NCBI GenBank assembly: GCA_963675595.2
Contig: CAXXLZ010000001.1
Location: 32,001 to 96,000 of the forward strand
From: Thermodesulfobacteriota bacterium
GTDB lineage: Bacteria; Desulfobacterota; Desulfarculia; JACQYL01
Length of the DNA: 64,000 nt
Direction: 5' to 3'
The position numbers and the translations under genes are program-made. Below are positions 4,938 to 17,859 of the stretch, one piece after another. Below the pieces are notes generated by a model. It was given only the letters and a program-made list of their open reading frames with translations. It had not been told where the DNA came from and did no database searches. Each line of letters opens with the position of its first letter. Position 1 is the first letter of the stretch.

Positions 4938-7649
4938 ATGTGGAATCCGAAAAGAGCCGTCATTGAATTTTCCATTAAACGCTACAAGCTCATCGCCGTA
5001 GCCGCGGTTTTGTTCACACTGGCGACCGGCGCTTTCTTCCCGTTGATCACCATTGATACGGACCCGGAAAGCATGCTCGAGAAAACCGAGCCCGTCCGGG
5101 TCTTCCACAATGAGAGTAAGAAGCGGTTCGATCTGAGCGATACCATTGTGCTGGGCGTTATCAACGAGCACGATCCGAACGGCGTTTTCAATCCGGAGAC
5201 TTTGAGGCGCGTTTATGAGTTGACCGAATACGCGAAGAGCCTCCGCTGGGAGGATGAAGCACATCCCGGTCGATTATCCGGTGTCATAGAAGCCGACATG
5301 ATCGCTCCGTCCATGGTCGATCACATCAGCCGGCAGGGACCCGGAACGATCAAGTTCGAGTGGCTCATGGCCCGGCCGCCGGAAACGAAGGCGGAAGCTC
5401 TGGCCGTTCGCGACAGGGCCCTCTCGAACCCCCTCTTCAAGGGCCGGATGATATCGGAAGACGGCAAGGCCCTCTGCATCTATCTGCCTTTGACGGATAA
5501 GCTCCTAAGCTATCGAATATACGAAGACCTCAACAGGAAGATCGCCCTGATGGGCGGCGAGGAAGAATACCACATCGCCGGTCTTCCGGTTGCGGAAAGC
5601 GCCATCGGGGTGGAGATGTTCAAGCAGATGACGGTGGCGGCTCCCTTGACGATGCTGGTGATCATGGGACTCCTGTTCCTCTTCTTTCGAAGATGGACGT
5701 TGATTGTCCTTCCCATGGTCGTTGCCACGGTTTCGGTGGTATCGGCATTGGGGCTGATGATCGCTTTCGGCTACCCGGTCCACATCCTCAGTTCCATGCT
5801 TCCGATCTTCGTGATGCCCATCGCCATCTGCGACACGGTTCATATTCTTTCGGATTTCTTTCAATCCTACACCAGAGAGAAGGGGCGCAGGCAAACCATC
5901 CGGGAAGTGATGCACTCGCTGTTCGCGCCCGTTCTATATACCTCGTTAACAACGGCCGCCGGCTTTCTGTCGTTCTTGACGACATCGATTCCGCCGGCGA
6001 GGGTTTTCGGTGTTTTTGTCGCCGTGGGGGTCTTGATTGCCTGGATCACCACCATATTGCTCGTGCCCGCATACATCATGATGATCCCGGATCGGGTGCT
6101 GGAAAACTTCGGCAAGTCGTCCAAGAAGCGAGAAGGACACACGTGGATCGAGGGGTTCCTGCAATTCCTGGGAAGGTTGACCTACACACGCGCAAAGTTG
6201 GTTCTGGCAATCATACCCTTGCTGCTCATCCCGGCGGTATGGGGTATTTCTCAGATCAGAATCAACGACAATTACGCGAAACGATTCAGTACAAACCATC
6301 CGATTCGCCAAGCAGATATCGCACTCAATAGGCATTTTGATGGGACCTATGTCGCGTACTTGGTCATGGAAGGGACCGAGACCGGAAAGCCGTCGCAGCG
6401 GGATATCCTGAGAACGGAATTGGACCTTGCCGACTTTGTCCAGGGCATGGGGGATCGCGGCGCAGCCGCCGCCGGAATCGTCGCGGATGTGGGGGGCGGA
6501 CTTGCCGGGTTCGCGCGAAAAGCGGGCTCGTTCGAGGCGTTCATGGATACGGCGACCCGTTATGTGGATGAGAAATCGGCCTCCGCCTCGGACGAGGATT
6601 ATGATGTCCTGCAGGAGCTAAGGAGCTTCTTCGGCATGGAAAAGGAGAAACGCAAGCCTTTCAAGCGGCCGGAGGTGCTCGAATATATGGCCGGACTGCA
6701 GACGTACCTGGTGAAGAAAGGATTGGTGGGTAAATGCACGTCCGTTGCAGACGTGGTTCGCAAAGTCAACCAGGAATTGACCGACGGTACCAAGGAGAGT
6801 TTTCGTATCCCGGACAAACTGCAAGGGGTGTCGGAATGCTACATGCAATACCAACAAAGCCATCGGCCCAACGATCTTTGGCATATGGTAACGCCGGATT
6901 TCATGAACGCCAATGTCTGGACCCAGTTCACACGAGGAGACAGCGAACAAACGCATAGAACCGTCAAGGCGGTGGAGCGATATGTCGCGACTCACGAGCC
7001 GCCGGTTGCTTTGTCCTTCCGGTGGGCGGGCCTGCATTACGTCAATTTCGTATTTCAGGACATCCTGTTCAGGCAGATGTTGCAATCGTTTGCCGGAACA
7101 TTGGGCATTGTCTTCATCATGATGGTCTTTCTATTTCGCTCTCTGCTTTGGGCCGTGGCGTCCATGATTCCTTTGACGCTCACCATCACCACCATCTACG
7201 GAGTCACCGGAATCGTGGGCAAGGACTACGACATGCCGGTTGCGGTCCTGAGCGCCATCTCACTTGGGATAGCCGTTGATTTCGCCGTCCACTTTCTGGA
7301 GCGGAGCCGTGAAATGTACGCACAAACAGGCTCCTGGGCGCAGACCGTGCCGAAAATGTTCGAAGAACCGGCAATAGCGATCAGCCGAAACGTCCTGGTG
7401 GTGGCGTTCGGATTCATGCCCCTCATGGTGGCTCAGTTGATTCCCTATAAGACGACCGCGGTACTGCTTTTCGGAATTCTCTTCTTTTCCGGTCTGATGA
7501 CCTTGCTCCTCCTTCCATCGTTGCTGATGGTCGCGGAAAAGTGGTTTTTCGGAAAACAAGCCGGAAGCAATCGGACGGCTGAATCAACGGAACAGGGGAG
7601 ACCCCTCGAAACCATGGAGAGCGAAATGAAGGCCGAGTCCTCCAAATGA
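4938..7649 (+). CDS. MMPL / RND-family transporter
   Basis: 903 aa with two repeats of TM bundle plus periplasmic domain; motifs IAICDTVH, TSLTTAAGFLS and GIAVDFAVHF. Confidence 0.92.
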   Translation: MWNPKRAVIEFSIKRYKLIAVAAVLFTLATGAFFPLITIDTDPESMLEKTEPVRVFHNESKKRFDLSDTIVLGVINEHDPNGVFNPETLRRVYELTEYAKSLRWEDEAHPGRLSGVIEADMIAPSMVDHISRQGPGTIKFEWLMARPPETKAEALAVRDRALSNPLFKGRMISEDGKALCIYLPLTDKLLSYRIYEDLNRKIALMGGEEEYHIAGLPVAESAIGVEMFKQMTVAAPLTMLVIMGLLFLFFRRWTLIVLPMVVATVSVVSALGLMIAFGYPVHILSSMLPIFVMPIAICDTVHILSDFFQSYTREKGRRQTIREVMHSLFAPVLYTSLTTAAGFLSFLTTSIPPARVFGVFVAVGVLIAWITTILLVPAYIMMIPDRVLENFGKSSKKREGHTWIEGFLQFLGRLTYTRAKLVLAIIPLLLIPAVWGISQIRINDNYAKRFSTNHPIRQADIALNRHFDGTYVAYLVMEGTETGKPSQRDILRTELDLADFVQGMGDRGAAAAGIVADVGGGLAGFARKAGSFEAFMDTATRYVDEKSASASDEDYDVLQELRSFFGMEKEKRKPFKRPEVLEYMAGLQTYLVKKGLVGKCTSVADVVRKVNQELTDGTKESFRIPDKLQGVSECYMQYQQSHRPNDLWHMVTPDFMNANVWTQFTRGDSEQTHRTVKAVERYVATHEPPVALSFRWAGLHYVNFVFQDILFRQMLQSFAGTLGIVFIMMVFLFRSLLWAVASMIPLTLTITTIYGVTGIVGKDYDMPVAVLSAISLGIAVDFAVHFLERSREMYAQTGSWAQTVPKMFEEPAIAISRNVLVVAFGFMPLMVAQLIPYKTTAVLLFGILFFSGLMTLLLLPSLLMVAEKWFFGKQAGSNRTAESTEQGRPLETMESEMKAESSK

Positions 7650-7701: not shown

Positions 7702-7882
7702 CTATTCACGGCGTGTGCCGCAGGGGGACGCCGTCCCCCTGCGCCCCCTGCCGGGGGACCAATGGCCCCCCGGACCCCCGCTGCGCTTTTGCGAATCGCG
7801 CACGCGATTCACAAGACGAGCAGCATGTGCCGTCCAACGTCGTAAAATACTGAAAGGTTTTTGGGGAGGAGCCCGTGGGAAC
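7702..7882 (+). repeat. REP-like repeat, family A (copy 2), inside the RND operon
   Basis: Aligns with 2070-2246, carries an extra CAGGGGGACGCCGTCCCCCTG hairpin, and is truncated at GGGAAC. Confidence 0.8.
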
Positions 7883-7977
7883 ATGGGGCTCCCGGCGACC
7901 CTGCGAATCATTACGGTCGCCAATGTTGGGAGCATGAAGAAGTACATCGGTCAAAGACAAGGAAAGCGGGAGGGATT

Positions 7978-8812
7978 ATGAAAGCGATAACGATTTCCAC
8001 GGTAACAGCCGTGGGGCTTCTGTTGGTGCTGGGCGTTTGCTGCGCATGGTCCGGAGATGTGAACGTCGACGACATCATTCGGAAGGCGAACCACATGGCC
8101 TTGTACCAGGGGGCGGACGCAAAAGGAAGAGTCGGCCTGGTGATCACCGACAAGCAGGGGCGTATCCGCAAGAGGGAATTCAACATTCTCCGAAAAGACG
8201 AAGGCGAGTCCGACGGGGATCAGAAATACTTCGTTTTCTTTCATGAACCCGCCGACGTTCGGAAAATGGTGTTCATGGTTCACAAGCATGCGGACCCGGG
8301 CAGAGACGACGACAGGTGGCTCTATATGCCGAGCCTTGATCTGGTAAAACGCATCGCGGCCGGTGACAAACGCACCAGTTTCTTGGGGTCCGATTTTCTT
8401 TACGAAGATATTTCGGGCCGAAGGCCGTTTGAAGATACCCATGAGCTGATAGAGACAACAAGTATGCATTATATCATCAAAAACATACCCATATATAAAG
8501 AGAAAGTTGAATTTGAACACTATATCGCATACATTGATAAAAATACTTTTATTCCTATGAAATTGGAGTTTTTTAAAAAAAGATGACAGACTATATCGTG
8601 TGGTTGAGTCAATAAGCGTGCTCGATATCGAAGCGTATGAAGACGGAAACAAGGTAACTTATCCTACCGTAATCGTATCGGTCGCCAAAGACCTGGAGAA
8701 TGGGAGCATGTCCGAAATGAAATATGCCAATACCCGGTACAATATGGGTTTGAAGTCGGATATTTTTACTGAACGTTATCTGATAAGGCCTCCAAGAGAT
8801 GCCGTTCGATAA
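7978..8812 (+). CDS. LolA-like outer-membrane lipoprotein-sorting family protein, frameshifted at about 8580
   Basis: Signal peptide; FHEPADVRKMVF..DDRWLYMPSLDLVKRIA..SFLGSDFLYEDI. Deleting one A from the T6A7 run gives FFKKDDRLYRVVES..IFTERYL. Confidence 0.85.
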
Positions 8813-10088: not shown

Positions 10089-10593
10089 AAGGCGGTTCCA
10101 CATTCCAAAATATGGGGGAATTCAATGAGCACTGAAACCGGAATGAAGAACCATGCTCATGAGGGAGGCGGACACAAGCGAGGCCCCACCAGCTTCCAAA
10201 TACACGACCCGGACCGGGTCTTCGACGCACTTCCTCTCAAGAAAGGAGACCATTTCCTGGACGCCGGCTGCGGGCCCGGGGATTATTCAATTCGGGCTTC
10301 GGAATGCGTCGGTGATGCCGGTCTGGTGTTTGCGCTGGACAAGGACAAGCAAATGATTGAGGAGCTGAGACGGAAAGCGCGGAAGAAAGGAATCACCAAT
10401 ATCAGGGCCGTGACCTCGGACTTTACCGCATCGTTGCCCCTGCGGGACCACTCCGTTGACGTGTGTCTCGCGGCAACGGTACTGCACATACCGGCCGTGT
10501 TCAAACATGCGAATGCCTTTGGAATGCCCCCCGATAATTGGTCCATGTATAATGAGAGTCTGAATGCCCAAAGAACGGAAGGAGACTTTTTGC

Positions 10594-10875
10594 ATGGCCA
10601 AGAGAAAGAGACACAGCGCGGAGCAAATCATCCGGAAACTTGAAGACGCGGACCGTCGTCTGACGGCAGGGCAGACGATAGCGCAGGTTTGCCAATCCCT
10701 GGAGGTGAGCGAGGCGACGTACCACCGGTGGCGAAACCAGTATGGCGGGATGAAGGCTGAGGAGGCCAAGCGGCTAAAAGAACTGGAAAAGGAAAATGCA
10801 CGCTTAAAAAAGCTGGTCGCCGATCTGATGTTGGACAAGGCAATGCTGAAGGATCTTGCGGAGGGAAACTTCTAA
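10594..10875 (+). CDS. IS3 transposase OrfA
   Basis: RHSAEQIIRKL..VSEATYHRWRNQYGGM..RLKELEKENARLKKLVADL; GGAG RBS; GGGAAAC -1 slippery site at the 3' end. Confidence 0.95.
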   Translation: MAKRKRHSAEQIIRKLEDADRRLTAGQTIAQVCQSLEVSEATYHRWRNQYGGMKAEEAKRLKELEKENARLKKLVADLMLDKAMLKDLAEGNF

Positions 10876-11774
10876 GCCCGGCGCGTCGTAGGAAAGCGGT
10901 TGATTATGTTCGAAGTGAACATGCCGCTTCAGAGCGTCGGGCCTGCCGCGTAGCCGGTCAACACCGATCCACCCAACGTTATGAGCCGAAGGAACGGGAC
11001 GATGAGGTGGAACTGATCAAGGCTCTTCACCGGTTGGTTGGAGAACATCCCCGTTTTGGATGCCGTAGGATCACTCGGCTGCTGCGTGATGCGGGGTGGG
11101 CGGTAAACTACAAGCGAATTCATAGACTTTGGAAAGAGGAGGGATTCAAGGTACCTCGAAAAGCCAAGAAGAAACGCTTCCTGGGAGTTGATGCCAATGC
11201 GTGCAACAAGCGTAAGGCGGCTTTTGCAAATGATGTCTGGACGTTGGATTTCATTCATGACCGCTTGGTCGACGGCCGTCAGTTCAAGTGCTTGGCCATT
11301 GTCGACGAGTTTACTCGGGAAAACCTGGCCCTGAGGATCAACCGCTCCATTACGGGTGAAGACGTTTTGAACGAGCTGAGCCGATTGATGGGCGAGCGGG
11401 GAGTTCCAACGGGCATTCGATCGGATAACGGTCCCGAATTTATAGCCCAAAAGGTGAGAAATTGGCTGAAAGACCTGGGAGTGGGAACCTTTTTCGTCGA
11501 GCCGGGAGCCCCTTGGCAGAACGGGTACGTGGAAAGTTTCAACAGCCGTTTTCGGGATGAATTCTTGAACATGGAAATTTTCAACAACATCAAGGAAGCG
11601 CAGACTCTGGCCGCCAAATGGCGGAAAGTCTATAACGAGGAAAGACCGCACAGTGCATTGAATTACATGACCCCGGCCCAGTTCGCGGCGAGCCCTTGGG
11701 GCCTCGACTCCGCCTCGCTCAGCTCGGCTTCGCCGTGGCCCCAAGGGCCGGGGATGGAAAACCGCGAGTCATGA
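10872..11774 (+). CDS. IS3 transposase OrfB (DDE), expressed by -1 frameshift
   Basis: WTLDF, IVDEFTRE, IRSDNGPEF, PWQNGYVESFNSRFRDE, YNEERPHSAL. Confidence 0.95.
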   Translation, partial: LSPARRRKAVDYVRSEHAASERRACRVAGQHRSTQRYEPKERDDEVELIKALHRLVGEHPRFGCRRITRLLRDAGWAVNYKRIHRLWKEEGFKVPRKAKKKRFLGVDANACNKRKAAFANDVWTLDFIHDRLVDGRQFKCLAIVDEFTRENLALRINRSITGEDVLNELSRLMGERGVPTGIRSDNGPEFIAQKVRNWLKDLGVGTFFVEPGAPWQNGYVESFNSRFRDEFLNMEIFNNIKEAQTLAAKWRKVYNEERPHSALNYMTPAQFAASPWGLDSASLSSASPWPQGPGMENRES

Positions 11775-12382: not shown

Positions 12383-12901
12383 ATGGGCAAATTCGATTTC
12401 TCCGTCATTCGGAATCTCCGCAAGAAGTGGGGATTAACCGCAGAGGAACTGGCAAAGCGTTCGGGCCTGACGCGAGGGACCATCGCGAAGATTGAAGGAA
12501 AAGACGGCAATCCGACCATCGAAACCATTGAAGCGTTGAGTGCCGTCTTCCAGTTGTCGTCCAGCGAATTGATCCGCCTTGCGGAGACCGCTCAGTGCGA
12601 GGCCGGCGCGACTCAGCCTTTTAAAGGACAAGGGATCGACGGCGCTCACATCTGGTTTCCCAATTTCGAGGTCTATCACCTCCGTGGGGGGCGCGGTGTG
12701 CGGAAGGAATCGGATCCCAGGCATCACGAGAATACGGCCGAAGTGTGCCTGGTGCTTTCCGGCAAGGTGAGAGTCGTCGTCGGCGAACAAAGCCATGAAT
12801 TGGGACCCGGTATGGCGCTACGGTTCAAGGCCCTGCATGAGCACCACTTCGATTTTATTGAAGAATCCGAGATGCTGCTCATTCACCATGTCTCGGTTTG
12901 A
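12383..12901 (+). CDS. XRE-family HTH regulator with C-terminal cupin domain
   Basis: LRKKWGLTAEELAKRSGLTRGTIAKIE..NPTI; cupin motifs HHENTAEVCLVLSG and LGPGMALRF..HEH. Confidence 0.9.
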   Translation: MGKFDFSVIRNLRKKWGLTAEELAKRSGLTRGTIAKIEGKDGNPTIETIEALSAVFQLSSSELIRLAETAQCEAGATQPFKGQGIDGAHIWFPNFEVYHLRGGRGVRKESDPRHHENTAEVCLVLSGKVRVVVGEQSHELGPGMALRFKALHEHHFDFIEESEMLLIHHVSV

Positions 12902-13038
12902 TCCGGGACGCGAGGAGACGGAACCAACCACGATTTCTCTGCGTATTCATTGAAAAGCCGAAGCGCCCGCGTGCCGGAACGGAGAACCTTTGTCGCAGGC
13001 TCGGCAACCAAACGAGGACCACGAGGGTCGGCAGCCGC

Positions 13039-13068
13039 CAAGGCCCTGATCCGGGGGTCTTTTTTTTT
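13039..13068 (+). terminator. Putative intrinsic terminator or attenuator before the DUF3786 gene
   Basis: AAGGCCCT-loop-GGGGTCTT stem followed by a long T run. Confidence 0.45.
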
Positions 13069-13092
13069 ATCCTTCTCGGGAAGGAGGGCGAA

Positions 13093-13761
13093 ATGGTCGA
13101 TAATCGAGAAGTGTTCGAAAGAATCTACAGGGACTATTTGGTGGAAGTGTCCGCCCTTGATTTGAATCGCATCAAGGAACGGCTCGGCGTGGAGCTGGAT
13201 GGGGAAACGGCGATTATCCCGTTCTACGGTGCGCCGTACCGGGTTTCTCCTGGAGGCATTGTCGATGATCAGGGGCGTCGACCGAATCATGCCGTGAGCG
13301 TGATCCTGTGCAAGTATCTGCTTCTGTGCCCGGAAAACGAACCGGTGGAGGGGGAGTGGGTGACTTACAGAGAGTTCAAGGATGCGCTTCCATTTGTCGG
13401 CGGGTTTGCTCAGAACACGGAGAGGCCCATCGGCCAAGGTTTTTCCGGCCGCATGGAACTGCTGAAGACAGCGTCGGAAGCCTTGTCGGGGCGACCGGCG
13501 GAAGAGGAAATCAGCGCCGACCTCGTTTTGAAATTCGAGGTCCTGCCCAAAATCCCCTTGTTGATGCTGTTCAACGATCGTGACGAGGATTTCCCGTCCA
13601 ATTGTTCGTTGTTGTTCCGGAGAAGCGCGGCGGAGTACCTGGACATGGAATGCCTCGCCATGGTCGGTTGGGTACTGTCCGACCGATTGAAAGTATGGCT
13701 GCCGGACCGATCGTCGGCGCCATCCGATTTGGCGATGTCCGTGGGCGCCGAGGATTCTTGA
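13093..13761 (+). CDS. DUF3786-domain protein
   Basis: VILCKYLL, WVTYREFKD, VLPKIPLL..DEDFPSNCSLLF..YLDMECLA; AGGAGG RBS before ATG 13093. Confidence 0.8.
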   Translation: MVDNREVFERIYRDYLVEVSALDLNRIKERLGVELDGETAIIPFYGAPYRVSPGGIVDDQGRRPNHAVSVILCKYLLLCPENEPVEGEWVTYREFKDALPFVGGFAQNTERPIGQGFSGRMELLKTASEALSGRPAEEEISADLVLKFEVLPKIPLLMLFNDRDEDFPSNCSLLFRRSAAEYLDMECLAMVGWVLSDRLKVWLPDRSSAPSDLAMSVGAEDS

Positions 13762-13820: not shown

Positions 13821-14615
13821 CTAACCGTTACGGTTTTTCAGTCTGAATGCCGCCAAGAGGATATACAGGCCGATCCATACGGCATAAGAGACCAAGAACA
13901 AGGTGGTTACCGGGTTTGCGGCGAGGGAAAAGGCTCCCCCGACCCGGGCGTCCGGCCCCTCTCCCTCCCGGTAGAAATCCGTCAGGGTCAAACGAACGTT
14001 TTGTCCCACCAAGGGTTCCAGCATGCGGATCGTGCCGGCCAGAACTTGTTCTTCTCCGAGGAACACCGAAACTTCGGCGTGGTCTTCTTTGGGGTGGAAT
14101 GTATCTCGCGTCAGAATTCTTCTTGAGGGCCGGTAGGGATAGTTGAGCAGGGCCGGATCATCTTTGAATTCAAGACCGCGGAGTTCGATCCGGTATTCGC
14201 CGGCTTGTCCGTTGGATCCTGGAAGAAGCCGGACGTTTTCCGCTTTGGTTCCAAAAGCCATTTGCGAGAGGTGCCCCAAAAGAACGAGCACCATGATGAG
14301 ATGAATGAGCACGAGGAGCCGCCCCGAACCTCGCCGGGTCCCGGTCATTCTCGGGATCAACCGTGTCCACGTGCAGCAGATCAAGTTCACCACCATGATT
14401 CCCGCCGCAGCGCAAAGTCCGAGGAACCAAGTCGCGGCCACCGGAGTTTTCCAGGCCGAGTTCATGATCCAATCTCTGACCAGTTCTCCATTCATGGCGT
14501 CGAGCCCCGGCCGAAGGGCCGGAATGTAACTGGTTATTGCGCCCAACCCGAACCAAACGGCCAGGAAAGTCAAAGCCCAAAAGGACAGCGTCAACGAAGA
14601 GAGGCGGTTGATCAT
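13821..14615 (-). CDS. Short ResB/CcsB-like membrane protein
   Basis: NLICCTWTRL and LIHLIMVLVLLGHL (TM His), a small periplasmic domain and a final TM. ATGA overlap with the upstream stop; GGAG RBS. Confidence 0.65.
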   Translation of the reverse strand: MINRLSSLTLSFWALTFLAVWFGLGAITSYIPALRPGLDAMNGELVRDWIMNSAWKTPVAATWFLGLCAAAGIMVVNLICCTWTRLIPRMTGTRRGSGRLLVLIHLIMVLVLLGHLSQMAFGTKAENVRLLPGSNGQAGEYRIELRGLEFKDDPALLNYPYRPSRRILTRDTFHPKEDHAEVSVFLGEEQVLAGTIRMLEPLVGQNVRLTLTDFYREGEGPDARVGGAFSLAANPVTTLFLVSYAVWIGLYILLAAFRLKNRNG

Positions 14616-15361
14616 AAGTTCTCCAAAAGGTGCGCCGCGTAAAGAATGGCTGGAAAGCAGCCCGCGATTGCGATGGCCCATGCCCTGGCTCGGGGGTTGG
14701 ACGACCAACGGACCGGCAGATGAAGTACGACGGTGATTCCCAGAAATACCGTGGTGGCCTCCAGGAAGTTTCGCCCCCAGCGCCAGTAGTCGCCCAACCA
14801 GTTGAGAGCCCAAGTGAACCCGCAGAACTCGCCGGCCAGGAAAAGCCCCGTACCGGCTACCAAGTGGTTCACGGCCCGTTTGCGTGCGCACCGCGCCGCC
14901 GCTTCATCAACGGCAGGCAACAGAGAGCCGCCGGCCGTGAGACCGGAAAAGAGGATGACCGCCACCGAAGCCCTTCTCAACAAGAAGAAGCATCGAGCCC
15001 AGGTGTAGTCGTACATGAACCAGGCCGGATATGGGGTACGATCAGCGAACAGCAGGAGGCTCAGGAGCAAGGAAACGGCGGTCCATACGAGCCGATCCAG
15101 TCGGACCGTTTTGAGGGCGCCGCCCGACCGCAACATGCCCAGAAGACCCAAAATGAAGGCCATGAACATCATGGGTTCGATGGCTCCGGCCACAGGCGGG
15201 CGTTTGGTCTTCGCATACAGAAGGACCAGGGTAAGGAAGATGCTTGTGAGCGCAGCTAAACCCAACCAGGGCGTGAGTCGCTTCAAGCGCATCCAACCTG
15301 ATGCCGCGGCGGCTATGCTGAGCACAAGCGCTGCAAAATAGGCAACTTCGAGAAAAGGCAA
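14612..15361 (-). CDS. Divergent CcsA/ResC-like (cytochrome c assembly family) membrane protein
   Basis: RPPVAGAIE segment, WWD-like GFTWALNWLGDYWRWG, and VVLHL. Start is a TTG at 15361 after AAGGAG. Confidence 0.75.
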   Translation of the reverse strand: MPFLEVAYFAALVLSIAAAASGWMRLKRLTPWLGLAALTSIFLTLVLLYAKTKRPPVAGAIEPMMFMAFILGLLGMLRSGGALKTVRLDRLVWTAVSLLLSLLLFADRTPYPAWFMYDYTWARCFFLLRRASVAVILFSGLTAGGSLLPAVDEAAARCARKRAVNHLVAGTGLFLAGEFCGFTWALNWLGDYWRWGRNFLEATTVFLGITVVLHLPVRWSSNPRARAWAIAIAGCFPAILYAAHLLENL

Positions 15362-15444
15362 GATGAAGACTCCTTCCGGAAGATAGAAGAAAGGAGGAGG
15401 GTTGCGTGACGCGCCCTTCCACCATTGTTTGGGGGGAGCGAAAC

Positions 15445-15615
15445 CCGTGCCGACGGCCCGTTCAAACGGGCCGGTTTCGGAAGGCCGGAGAAAAACGACG
15501 ACGCTCAAAACGCGGCGGCCTTGAGCAATGCATCGTTTGGAAAGCATGTTGCAGCAGCGATGGATGAAGCGCAATTCGCTTGGCTAGGGCGGATTGCGCC
15601 TTTCAACAGCCTGTT
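15445..15615 (-). repeat. MITE-like repeat, family B (copy 2), between the TBDR and ccsA-like genes
   Basis: Reverse complement begins CAGGCTGTTGAAAAGGCGCAATC..TTGCGCTTCATCC..CGTTTTTCTCCGGCC..AACCGGCCC..CCGTCGGC. Confidence 0.7.
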
Positions 15616-15648
15616 GGACGGGTTATGCTCGTTGAACGGCGACGTTGG

Positions 15649-17730
15649 TCAGAATCGCGCGATCAGACCGATCCGCCATTCCCGTCCGGGTCCGGGAAAG
15701 TCCACTTCGGACTCGTAGTCTTTGTCAAAGATGTTGTTCACGCCTGCATAGGCTTCGAAGTATTCGAAGAACTCCCTGGACACACGCGCGTTAAGAATAA
15801 AGTAACCGTCGGTCTTCTCCCCTTCGAGGTCGGGATTCGCCGGCGTGGGCAGTTGATCGTAGCGTTCTCCCACGGCGAGGCCTTGGAGGTCCAGCTTGGT
15901 CAAGACTAGGGGGATGAGGTAGCTTGCCCCAACGTCCAGCTTGTGCTCCGGAACGCGTAGGACTTTGTCCGTGGCCCGATCGTCGCTTTCATCGCGGGCT
16001 ACGGTGTAGGTGTAATCCAATCGGAAGATCAGTTCCTTGAGAGGACTCCAGACGAGCCCGGCTTCCATTCCATAAAGGTGGACCTTTCCATAATTCTGGA
16101 ATTGGGACGTGGGATTATTGGGGCCGTCGCGACTGATCCAGTCACTGATATCCATGTAGAAGCCGGCCAACCGGATGTCGATTTGATCGAAGAAACGCCT
16201 GCCGACGCCGAGGTTATAATTGATGCTCGTCTCCGCTTCCAGCTCCGGGTTCCCTCCCTTGGTGCTGTAAAGCTCCTGCAAGGTGGGAAATCGGGTCTTC
16301 CGTCCAACGGATCCGAAAATTCGCGTCGTATCGGAGAACGTGTAACTCGCCCCGACCATGGGGTTCCATTCCGATTTGGTTCCCGGAGTATCAAGGTCTT
16401 GCTGCTTCGTGAGGTTGCCGTCCTTGTCCGTGAGATTTTCTTCAGCCCTGTCCACCTGATACCAATCGTACCCCATTCCCGCGACCACCATCAGGCCCGG
16501 AACGGCGGTGAATCGGTACTCGATCCCCGAGGAACCCGTGTAGGAGAATGATTCGGCATAGGGCAGGTACTCGTCGTCCCGTTCCTTGTGGGAGTCCCCT
16601 TTGAAGTGGAAGGCCGCGGCCAGCATGTGGCCGTCCAGCACGTTGTATTCCGCCGTGAGGTTGCCTCCGGCGAAATAGTCCTTGTAACGGCTGTGTGCGA
16701 TGGCATCGGTGAAGTTTGCGTCCGAGTAGGAAACGTACAAGTCCTCGTGGTTGTGGTAGAAGAGTTTGCCTTTGAGGGTGAGCTTTTCGCTCAAAGCCCG
16801 ACGGCCGCTCAGGTCCACTCCCATGTCGTCATAGTCTTCCCAGCGGGACAGCCTGGAGAAGGCGGGTCGACTTGTGAACACCATTTCGCTGCTGATGTTC
16901 GGCGGCATGCCCCGATCGGCGTTGATCCAGTGGAAGTTGGCAAAGTACTCGCCGTCGTCGGATTCGTATCCCACCCGAGACCATATGCTGTCCACGCGGT
17001 AATCCGAGTTGTTTCTGTAACCCCCGTCTTCCAGGAGCGCTTCCTCGGTACCCCCGGGTTTGTATACGATGCCGCCCATTTCCGGTGCGTAGTCGCCGGA
17101 CATCCGCCACCCGTCGCTTGCTCTTCGGGTGTAATTGAGAAAGTAGTTCCAGTTTCCGATCTTCATGCCGTGGGAAACGCCGGCACGATAGGTGCCGTGC
17201 TCGCCCGCTTCGCCGATGAGCATAAAGGAGGGCTTTTCGCTCGCGGCCTTTTTGGTTACGACATTGATCACGCCGGCGAGGGCGTTGGGACCATAGAGGA
17301 CGGAAGAGGCGCCTTTAATGATTTCGATTCTGGAAATGATGTCGGCTGGAATCTGGTCCAGGTTCAGCCGGTGGTACTTGGTTTCGTAATAAGGAACGCC
17401 GTCGATGAGAATCGCGGCTTTTTCCTGCGCCAAGCCGTAAATTTGCACCTGAGGTTCATTACGTCGGTTGGTGGTGACCAGAACACCCGGGGCGAACGCC
17501 AGGGCCTCGGCTACGGTGGTGCTGTTTGTGGCACGTACTTGTTCCTCGGTGACGATGTCGTGGATCACCACTTCTCTATCGTCGGGTCGATCTGCTGAAA
17601 CCAGGAGTTCTCCGAGGTAATAGGGTTCGAAACCCGCCTTCTCGGTATCCTGGGCGGAAGCCGGTCCTACGGCCGATAAAAGGATGATGAGCAGACTGAG
17701 GAGGAGGATCTTGGGGCATTCGGGGCGCAT
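15649..17730 (-). CDS. TonB-dependent outer-membrane receptor
   Basis: Signal peptide, TonB box-like ELLVSA, plug motif ISRIEIIKGASSVLYGPNALAGVINVVTK, NPELEAE, and C-terminal GVNNIFDKDY..PGREWRIGLIARF. Confidence 0.95.
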   Translation of the reverse strand: MRPECPKILLLSLLIILLSAVGPASAQDTEKAGFEPYYLGELLVSADRPDDREVVIHDIVTEEQVRATNSTTVAEALAFAPGVLVTTNRRNEPQVQIYGLAQEKAAILIDGVPYYETKYHRLNLDQIPADIISRIEIIKGASSVLYGPNALAGVINVVTKKAASEKPSFMLIGEAGEHGTYRAGVSHGMKIGNWNYFLNYTRRASDGWRMSGDYAPEMGGIVYKPGGTEEALLEDGGYRNNSDYRVDSIWSRVGYESDDGEYFANFHWINADRGMPPNISSEMVFTSRPAFSRLSRWEDYDDMGVDLSGRRALSEKLTLKGKLFYHNHEDLYVSYSDANFTDAIAHSRYKDYFAGGNLTAEYNVLDGHMLAAAFHFKGDSHKERDDEYLPYAESFSYTGSSGIEYRFTAVPGLMVVAGMGYDWYQVDRAEENLTDKDGNLTKQQDLDTPGTKSEWNPMVGASYTFSDTTRIFGSVGRKTRFPTLQELYSTKGGNPELEAETSINYNLGVGRRFFDQIDIRLAGFYMDISDWISRDGPNNPTSQFQNYGKVHLYGMEAGLVWSPLKELIFRLDYTYTVARDESDDRATDKVLRVPEHKLDVGASYLIPLVLTKLDLQGLAVGERYDQLPTPANPDLEGEKTDGYFILNARVSREFFEYFEAYAGVNNIFDKDYESEVDFPGPGREWRIGLIARF

Positions 17731-17762
17731 TATGAGTTCTCCTTGCCGGTGGGAATCCGGAC

Positions 17763-17786
17763 TGATATATTTTTAAAAATATACCG
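17763..17786. promoter_or_regulatory. Operator 1 (ModE-box-like), core TATATTTTTAAAAATATA
   Basis: Perfect 18-bp palindrome at 17766-17783; minus strand reads CGGTATAT-N8-ATATATCA. Confidence 0.7.
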
Positions 17787-17830
17787 ACGGTGCGGAAAAA
17801 GCCGCTGAAAAGCGGCCGACGACATGGTTA

Positions 17831-17859
17831 TTTATATTTTTAAAAATATATCGAGTCAA
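17831..17859 (-). promoter_or_regulatory. Sigma70 promoter of the TBDR operon, overlapped by operator 2
   Basis: Minus strand TTGACT, 17 bp, TATAAA. An identical 18-bp palindrome at 17833-17850 covers the spacer and -10. Confidence 0.75.

Follow-up and report, generated by a model that had tools for sequence, protein, structure and literature searches.

A TonB-dependent receptor with a minimal CcsBA-like membrane pair: a candidate molybdenum- or tungsten-uptake module in the Desulfarculia

A gene for a TonB-dependent receptor (TBDR) and two genes for small membrane proteins lie head to tail, in that order, on the minus strand of a 64,000-nucleotide (nt) stretch of contig CAXXLZ010000001.1 from a Thermodesulfobacteriota bacterium (hereafter the window; coordinates count from its first letter). 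The receptor (15649-17730; 693 aa, with a signal peptide, plug and barrel) is followed by protein A (14612-15361; 249 aa), which resembles CcsA and other heme-handling membrane proteins, and by protein B (13821-14615; 264 aa, four transmembrane (TM) helices), which resembles ResB/CcsB. Very probably, A and B are the two halves of an inner-membrane heterodimer whose ancestor was the System II cytochrome c synthase CcsA-CcsB. The membrane histidines and a Trp-rich loop remain in the pair; P-His1, DPKE and the bulk of the CcsB periplasmic domain are gone, and hence it would no longer be a synthase. Judged from promoter sequences, a ModE-type repressor is likely to control TBDR-A-B through two operators, with expression under molybdenum (or tungsten) scarcity together with ModABC. 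Our preferred reading, to which we give a probability of roughly 45%, is that the three genes constitute an uptake module for molybdenum or tungsten (Mo/W) starvation in which the inner-membrane pair processes the cargo. The link to these metals is new here and comes from the ModE-type operators and from synteny with modE and modABC.

Neither A nor B matched any Pfam or NCBIfam model at E ≤ 1, so the label of a divergent, minimal CcsA/ResB-like pair given in the preliminary description was put to the test. Profiles, hhalign alignments, AlphaFold models and fold searches agree on it. Word-indexed protein searches with A or B returned 2, 1 and 6 matches, and the family emerged from exhaustive HMMER and six-frame genome searches. 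A HMMER profile search with A and one word-search relative, run at E ≤ 1e-3 against 1.84 billion proteins, gathered 145 representative clusters. Most of these are ~245 aa long, and a few canonical CcsA/CcsBA proteins lie near the threshold. Family A is probably left unnamed or loosely named in annotations, since standard domain models do not detect it; Cytochrom_C_asm (PF01578) is matched at E ≤ 1 by 42 of the 78 full-length members in our alignment, A2 (best 1.1e-8). Among PDB sequences, the A2 profile matched CcsBA 7s9y best, at E 0.0027 over almost the whole length, with a CcsA chain next at E 0.022. Aligned by hhalign with the canonical CcsA of the same genome, A2 reached 96.8% probability (E 2.5e-10, 224 columns). 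The AlphaFold (AF2) model of A is of high predicted quality (pLDDT 93.5, pTM 0.92). Its sole Foldseek match at E ≤ 1e-3 was again CcsBA 7s9y (E 5.7e-4, TMq 0.67), and CcmF was matched at a probability of 1.00. VIA-align, an independent all-against-all structural aligner, placed CcmF 6zmq_A first (Z 20.6, root-mean-square deviation 3.2 Å, 240 of 249 residues) and CcsBA second at Z 13.1, with unrelated helix bundles at Z ≤ 11.5. On this sequence and model evidence, A is a remote relative of CcsA.

The residues that family A retains and those that it lacks are equally telling. In H. hepaticus CcsBA, Table 1 of PMC11322641 gives H858 and H83 as the TM histidines, H761 as P-His1 and H897 as P-His2. 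The counterpart of H858 is A-H214 (in the sequence VVLHL), the sole histidine conserved across all 78 relatives. Conservation in A is highest in a Trp-rich, WWD-like loop (residues 184-199), in which W184, G190, W193, W195 and F199 are kept. Window A reads WLGDYWRWG here, the family consensus being GWGDxWxWS, and the canonical WDPKE is replaced by WGRNF in window A and by WSxGF in the consensus. P-His1 has no equivalent. CcsBA H761 aligns with an invariant F125, hhalign puts the canonical histidine at W121, and the P-His1 stretch of family A holds no conserved histidine (best column, position 126, 13 of 78). At the other end, A-H244 closes the last helix, and the profile alignments stop before CcsBA H897. 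Among family A members, 30 of 78 have a histidine in the last 14 residues, as do 18 of the 24 group-1 proteins encoded at the loci retrieved; given these and H244, a P-His2-like ligand may survive in this branch, with H244 standing in for P-His2. The conserved TM histidines, the altered WWD motif and the lack of an evident histidine before it had all been noted in the preliminary description, and each withstood the wider alignment.

Protein B is, by profile and by model, a remote relative of ResB/CcsB. A 37-sequence B alignment matched the canonical ResB of the same genome by hhalign at 92.5% (E 4.9e-7), with TM1, TM2 and the His-bearing TM3 aligned. The B profile also matches, over the full length (E 7e-23 to 1e-12), the short ResB-like proteins of what we call group 2: short CcsA-like/ResB-like pairs linked to CobN, which include a paralogue in the same genome (locus L010). 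One group-2 ResB-like protein passes the cut-off of Pfam ResB (PF05140) at 29.9 bits. The ESM Atlas clusters nearest to B are short ResB-like proteins (score 0.95), and 28 of the 30 matches fall in the same set. CcsBA 7s9y was the sole Foldseek match at E ≤ 1e-3 (E 5.4e-4, probability 1.00) for the AlphaFold (AF2) model of B, which has a pLDDT of 92.0. The histidine of the LIHL sequence, B-H105 in TM3, aligns with the membrane histidine of canonical ResB; it is present in 12 of 12 relatives in a first alignment and in 36 of 37 in the larger one. The large ResB periplasmic domain is not present in B. Its place is taken by a beta-rich domain of ~120 aa (residues 123-233), as short as had been described; the canonical ResB of the genome has 451 aa in total.

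Several lines of evidence suggest that A and B belong together as a pair. Flanks were compared for 26 loci: the window, 16 others in its class, and 9 spread over five further families of the phylum. Gene calls in the relatives come from a codon-model caller and are approximate, and at one locus (L030) the only gene of the pair is an A-like one. In 23 of 25 group-1 cases B follows A directly on the same strand, with a stop/start overlap in 17 and a gap of at most 6 nt in the other 6. In the window, the start of A was placed at a TTG 8 nt past GGAAGGAG, and the resulting 249 aa equal the length of database cluster P0001. The ATG of B overlaps the TGA of A as ATGA, an arrangement that bears out the translational coupling of B to A read from the sequence at the outset. 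The heterodimer structure prediction suggested in the preliminary description was also carried out. Predicted together with a heme, the A-B complex scored 0.86 each time in three runs; the highest of its three controls stood at 0.00. The runs share at least 91% of their contacts, and partner pLDDT is at least 85. Of 80 solved complexes, 58 attain the same mark, against 2 of 110 mismatched pairs, and our prediction, with custom alignments and a ligand, differs from the calibration of the score. Since a similar complex, CcsBA, is already solved, the pass denotes likeness rather than proof of binding. The predicted interface sets the WWD-like loop and H214 helix of A against TM1, TM4 and the periplasmic domain of B.

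The losses seen in A-B argue against a role in cytochrome c maturation. According to PMC6299221, what defines the heme-handling family is the pair P-His1 and P-His2 on either side of the WWD domain, and CcsBA has two membrane histidines besides, all four being needed for cytochrome c maturation. The same paper states that P-His variants of CcsBA retain heme and that CcsBA moves heme outward (PMC6299221). With P-His1 missing, the WWD motif deprived of its DPKE half and the CcsB periplasmic domain largely gone, A-B is, on sequence and models, very unlikely to be a normal cytochrome c synthase. A canonical pair, ResB (451 aa) and CcsA (281 aa), is encoded elsewhere in the genome (C2:3807089-3809235). 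As had been reported, no CxxCH motif occurs in any open reading frame (ORF) of at least 60 aa across the window, and no thioredoxin or DsbD family member was matched among the 23 window proteins scanned. One could still imagine a specialised, genuine synthase that serves a dedicated cytochrome encoded elsewhere, since A-B shares its fold and its two TM histidines with CcsBA. We find this scarcely credible: of the four histidines, all required in CcsBA (PMC6299221), at least P-His1 is missing on alignment; the WWD motif is altered; the genome already has its canonical pair; the window holds no CxxCH ORF; and a multihaem cytochrome gene lies near the pair at only 1 of the 26 loci (L030).

The evidence for molybdenum control begins at the receptor promoter. 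A putative promoter for the TBDR consists of TTGACT (17859-17854), a 17-nt spacer and TATAAA (17836-17831). Operator 1, a ModE-box-like palindrome (17830-17853, minus strand), covers the spacer and -10 element. Operator 2, a second such palindrome (17763-17786, minus strand), lies between the promoter and the TBDR start codon. They match 12 and 13, respectively, of the 16 specified positions of the E. coli ModE consensus as quoted in PMC545781. In relatives, a 24-bp motif, CGnTATat-N8-atATAnCG, precedes the module, usually in two copies (L033, L026, L027, L023, L024, L025 and L031), and this motif equals the E. coli ModE consensus (PMC545781). A matrix built from 12 sites of relatives only scored the two window operators at 25.6 and 25.7 bits, respectively.

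Genome-wide searches place these operators in a small set that includes sites at molybdenum-related genes. In the 6.79-Mb genome, the relatives-only matrix found ten matches of at least 14 bits. The first (31.5 bits) lies upstream of an operon of GntR and xanthine-dehydrogenase-family (Mo-hydroxylase) genes; ranks 2 to 4 are the two window operators and a site between modE-N and modA (18.7 bits). The literature consensus alone gave 8 sites at 13/16 or better in the 6.79 Mb, three of which are operator 2, the modE-N/modA gap and the xanthine-dehydrogenase-family operon. A strict core-palindrome search returned four places: the window's own two, an AT-rich stretch beside a transposase gene, and a place upstream of an Rrf2-rubrerythrin operon. 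Because the strict core palindrome alone could not define the regulon, it was defined by the 24-bp motif of the relatives and the literature consensus. Across the 26 loci, a box of at least 13/16 occurs near the module in 11.

The box upstream of the Rrf2-rubrerythrin operon deserves separate mention. A 14/16 match to the ModE consensus at C2:2728605-2728628 (L039, ~6606-6629) stands ~100 nt upstream of an operon that encodes Rrf2, rubrerythrin, a peroxiredoxin-type protein (Redoxin/AhpC-TSA), desulfoferrodoxin, ferritin and rubredoxin. This box is more likely an Rrf2-type operator than a ModE site.

Synteny in relatives ties the pair to molybdenum and to receptors. The pair occurs either in modE-A-B-modABC operons or beside orthologous receptors. 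The gene order modE-N, A, B, modA, modB(C) is found at four loci (L023, L024, L025 and L031). At L028 the order A, B, modABC lies beside nif genes, and at L079 modB-modA-modE-N diverges from TBDR-A-B. ModA adjoins the pair at 6 loci and modE-N at 5; the flanking ModA proteins score 291-306 bits (cut-off 253), and ModE-repressor-domain proteins and ModB were identified as well. Mo/W enzymes are also neighbours, namely a tungsten-type aldehyde:ferredoxin oxidoreductase at L029 and a formate-dehydrogenase-like protein with a molybdopterin enzyme at L032. The suggested profile and neighbourhood survey found homologues linked to a TBDR at 20 of 26 loci, including all 9 loci of the five other families. 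At 14 loci the TBDR gene comes immediately next in the same orientation, and these include 8 of the 9 distant loci, where the order is A-B-TBDR. TBDR orthologues of 46-64% identity adjoin A-B pairs in relatives. The early proposal of a metal-related uptake module with a TBDR therefore gains substance, the metal probably being Mo or W. Several genomes within a single genus encode a further A/B-like pair, of greater divergence, a few kb from the modE-A-B-modABC operon (L023:4445-5239, plus strand; L024:12605-14130, minus strand), and in one of the B-like proteins the conserved histidine is Asn.

The boxes might instead belong to another regulator, and the cargo might be unrelated to Mo/W, such as a corrinoid, heme or other metal chelate. 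The receptor passes the Pfam cut-offs for Plug (81.5 bits) and TonB_dep_Rec_b-barrel (143.3 bits), and every NCBIfam match that could indicate a substrate class fell far under its cut-off, with no equivalog reached. In favour of this view, its nearest solved chains, matched across the plug region only, are BtuB and CirA. BtuF/FecCD-type transporters accompany the pair at 5 loci, a related family of CcsA/ResB-like pairs is linked to CobN, and the 14/16 box also precedes the Rrf2-rubrerythrin operon. We nonetheless regard a cargo of this kind as highly doubtful. ModE-N and modABC lie within the same operons as the pair, the genome-wide box set includes modA and a Mo enzyme, and W/Mo enzymes (aldehyde:ferredoxin oxidoreductase, formate dehydrogenase and nitrogenase) neighbour the pair at L029, L032 and L028. 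Moreover, the entire window was scanned against Rfam at gathering thresholds without a match to any riboswitch or other RNA family, so explanations by a cobalamin or molybdenum-cofactor (Moco) riboswitch were dropped.

The preliminary description had proposed that the pair acts in place of the usual ABC transporter, and as a general statement this fails. ModABC is present at 6 loci, a FecCD-type ABC system at 5 (a Peripla_BP_2 protein combined with FecCD, an ABC-ATPase gene or both, and in many cases an NTPase_1 protein) and an APC-family permease beside the pair at 5. Two observations favour a redox or processing role over that of a transporter: the invariant membrane histidines, which suggest a bound heme, and the variety of inner-membrane transporters found alongside the pair. 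A-B could still be the inner-membrane translocator itself, as in the importer idea of the preliminary description; the former heme channel would then bring in a different cargo from the periplasm, planar or chelated. TBDR-A-B stands alone at three loci (the window, L026 and L027), where at least 6 kb of annotated flank showed no other transporter gene; 8 of 9 loci of other families preserve the A-B-TBDR order; the WWD-like loop is the most conserved part of A; and in Foldseek the A model is closer to the open form of CcsBA (TMq 0.67) than to the closed form (0.45). Set against these points are the diversity of the accompanying transporters, the outward direction of heme movement described for CcsBA in PMC6299221, and the two invariant membrane histidines, which are more easily explained as ligands of a bound heme. 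On balance we consider a translocator unlikely, though not far-fetched.

In the preferred reading of a Mo/W-starvation module, the parts would work together as follows. Scarcity of Mo or W would lift ModE-type repression, and the receptor and A-B would be made together with ModABC. A-B probably binds one heme b, as sequence and models suggest from the invariance of the two membrane histidines; by analogy with the membrane site of CcsBA, the heme would be held between B-His105 and A-His214. The pair would then act as a small membrane redox unit at the periplasmic face. Cargo that bears Mo or W, delivered by the receptor, would be processed at the WWD-like loop and the B periplasmic domain, and ModABC, or whichever other transporters stand with the pair in relatives, would receive the metal. 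As a whole, this sequence of heme b, redox unit, cargo processing and onward passage of the metal is tentative, and we rate it at somewhat less than an even chance.

A number of observations weigh against the preferred reading. Regarding the proteins, window A and B fall short of every Pfam and NCBIfam model even at E ≤ 1, and a B profile from 12 relatives found nothing among PDB sequences at E ≤ 10. Regarding regulation, the operators are predictions, one of the two window sites has only 12/16 matches, 15 of 26 loci have no box at the threshold, an extra box at L026 lies far from the module, and the genome's ModE (ModE-N, C2:24594-25103) is the N-terminal DNA-binding domain alone. A terminator-like hairpin (15527-15502) also separates the TBDR from A. 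Regarding chemistry, a single heme makes a thin wire for transmembrane electron transfer, no quinone site or electron donor was identified, and release of molybdate from a carrier need not be redox chemistry. Finally, the semi-conserved H244 and the strongly conserved WWD-like loop fit heme transfer as well.

This last point bears on the possibility that A-B still exports heme to a non-CxxCH acceptor, such as a periplasmic partner of the uptake system. Candidate acceptors exist in relatives. Sulfite-oxidase-like (Oxidored_molyb) domains fused to a TP_methylase-fold domain are encoded at 5 loci (L024:15651-17417, L030:4985-6823, L090:4392-6197, L091:11340-13205 and L095:4713-6491), and either part alone at 4 more (L078:5883-7064, L096:4756-5826, L032:5810-6697 and L034:208-1098); these proteins adjoin the TBDR or the pair. 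Three that were translated (L024, L032 and L078) have, read by eye, a hydrophobic signal-like start without a twin-arginine motif. Export outside the twin-arginine (Tat) route would be odd for an enzyme of Moco or S-adenosylmethionine, so these Sec-type proteins may be periplasmic binding proteins. Retention of both TM histidines and the Trp-rich loop is what a heme exporter would show, as is the P-His2-like C-terminal histidine (18 of 24 group-1 proteins, 30 of 78 across the family), and Sec-signal periplasmic proteins with a tetrapyrrole-methylase-fold domain adjoin the module at 7 of 26 loci. P-His1 is missing, however, and molybdenum control would be odd for a heme exporter. In addition, the window's genome has no such partner near the module, and the fusion protein is absent genome-wide. 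We therefore judge heme export quite improbable.

The same proteins enter a more specific variant of the uptake reading, which is decidedly unlikely in our estimate. Here the module would salvage a preformed organic molecule that bears Mo or W, whether a metallophore complex or a pterin- or tetrapyrrole-like cofactor. The receptor would import it, the pair would translocate or unload it by means of the aromatic WWD-like platform and a bound heme, and the Sec-exported fusion proteins, with two sulfite-oxidase-like domains each beside the tetrapyrrole-methylase-fold domain, would act as periplasmic carriers in some relatives. Such molecules could persist in anoxic, sulfidic habitats. If this were true, a second, TonB-dependent Mo/W pathway would stand beside the oxyanion ABC transporters, and the CcsBA-type machine would have its first non-cytochrome job.

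The gene layout supports one half of an early claim that three co-oriented genes share one promoter. All three genes do lie on the minus strand; the single promoter is less certain, given a structured gap of 287 nt between TBDR and A (15362-15648, minus strand) and the hairpin within it. The minimum free energy of this spacer is -105.8 kcal/mol (z = -4.25 versus shuffled sequences), and neither a ModE box nor a promoter-like site was found in it. In L079 and L033, the two closest relatives with the same gene order, the spacer is only 28 and 52 nt. The structured spacer may be an inserted repeat or an attenuator.

The distribution of the module was surveyed in genomes of the class and phylum. 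Within the class, 38 of 95 genomes match at E ≤ 1e-5, and one family accounts for 26 of its 35 genomes; in a sample of the phylum, 20 of 401 genomes match at E ≤ 1e-20. A-B was matched neither in the 2 genomes of the family to which the window belongs nor in the 2 further ones of the same order, and a FastTree phylogeny of B proteins (support values not printed) places the window copy within the clade of another family of the class. Because B nests in that clade and the genomes searched from its own family and order have no copy, horizontal gain of the module into the window's genome is suspected.

In the window, two plus-strand genes converge on B: an HTH_3-cupin regulator gene (12383-12901) and a DUF3786 gene (12898-13761; Pfam DUF3786, 164.5 bits). 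The latter may be associated, weakly, with the module. At L079, two DUF3786 genes stand 3-5 kb away from the TBDR-A-B genes; one is 47% identical, and the other has an Fe-S motif domain at its N-terminus. No DUF3786 homologue was found in the other loci among those examined. An IS3-type element (10564-11774, plus strand) with HTH_Tnp_1 and rve/rve_3 ORFs lies ~2 kb from the module. Further away, two adjacent plus-strand ORFs (7861-8586 and 8600-8812) match positions 1-123 and 131-183 of a LolA_like model, which suggests one gene split by a frameshift or stop codon.

Uptake of Mo and W in bacteria is known through the oxyanion ABC transporters ModABC, TupABC and WtpABC. Sulfide makes molybdate scarce for sulfate reducers and their kin, and nitrogenase, formate dehydrogenases and aldehyde oxidoreductases need Mo or W. 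If the uptake module proposed here is real, Mo/W uptake would gain a further layer, a Mo-regulated and TonB-dependent route that has an inner-membrane partner of its own, and its importance would be greatest for these organisms. The pair would likewise exemplify clearly how the scaffold of a cytochrome c synthase can be put to a different use. A-B can be seen as a natural 'minimal CcsBA'; because only the membrane heme site and the Trp-rich loop are kept, it offers a compact model for testing the roles of these parts on their own. No published description of the module was found, judged from titles and abstracts on TonB-dependent Mo/W uptake and on CobN-ResB-CcsA.

Among the closest known systems is CcsBA/ResBC (7S9Y, 7S9Z). 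A-B shares with it the folds of both chains, the gene pairing and a predicted heterodimer, as well as the equivalence of A-H214 with H858, the alignment of B-H105 with the ResB TM histidine, and a Trp-rich periplasmic loop. It differs in the absence of P-His1, the replacement of DPKE and a CcsB periplasmic domain cut to ~120 aa. Gene order differs too, A preceding B in the pair and ResB preceding CcsA at the genome's canonical locus. In contrast to CcsBA, A-B has no cytochrome or thiol-redox partner nearby and lies in operons, predicted to be Mo-regulated, with a TBDR or modABC. [quoted passage not shown] The solved CcmF chain has 589 aa and the family-defining P-His (PMC6299221), whereas A is a 249-aa core without P-His1.

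The CobN-linked pairs of group 2 resemble A-B in size and architecture and are matched over the full length by both profiles (A, E 5e-11 to 6e-6; B, in the range given above); they too adjoin TBDRs and binding-protein-dependent transporters. In contrast to A-B, they pass Pfam cut-offs (Cytochrom_C_asm 37.5 bits; ResB as noted), have a C-terminal histidine in 0 of 7 cases, and are linked to a CobN-type chelatase, BtuF/FecCD and CbiZ, not to modE/modABC. Profiles were needed for the link: by BLASTP, A against the genome's CobN-linked paralogue was not significant and B was weak (E 0.007). At the paralogous locus itself (L010, C2:3286000-3301000; L010 6735-7526, 7238-7834, 7880-9589 and 9636-10211), the ResB-like gene is split by a 569-aa transposase ORF. 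Its flanks hold a 1284-aa ORF read as CobN-like (unscanned) and BtuF-, FecCD- and ATPase-like ORFs. The counterparts L073-L075 carry, by Pfam, CobN-Mg_chel, Peripla_BP_2, FecCD and ABC_tran, with TBDRs and CbiZ near.

Looser parallels exist among small membrane heme-b proteins that partner periplasmic uptake or repair systems. A FoxB-type siderophore reductase is encoded beside a TBDR gene, and MsrQ serves the Moco enzyme MsrP. The analogy with A-B is that of a small inner-membrane heme protein that acts on a periplasmic substrate or partner. The folds are unrelated, and heme in FoxB and MsrQ is shown by experiment, that of A-B being proposed from sequence. The nearest literature precedent that we met is the iron-starvation locus BT2473-BT2482 of B. 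thetaiotaomicron, which, according to PMC10434189, holds two genes annotated as CcsA. Compared by that description only, it differs in phylum, in its metal (iron) and in its partners, a porin, a peptidase M75 and a thiol oxidoreductase (PMC10434189). The likeness to TBDR-A-B is that CcsA-like genes lie in a locus induced by metal starvation together with an outer-membrane channel protein (PMC10434189).

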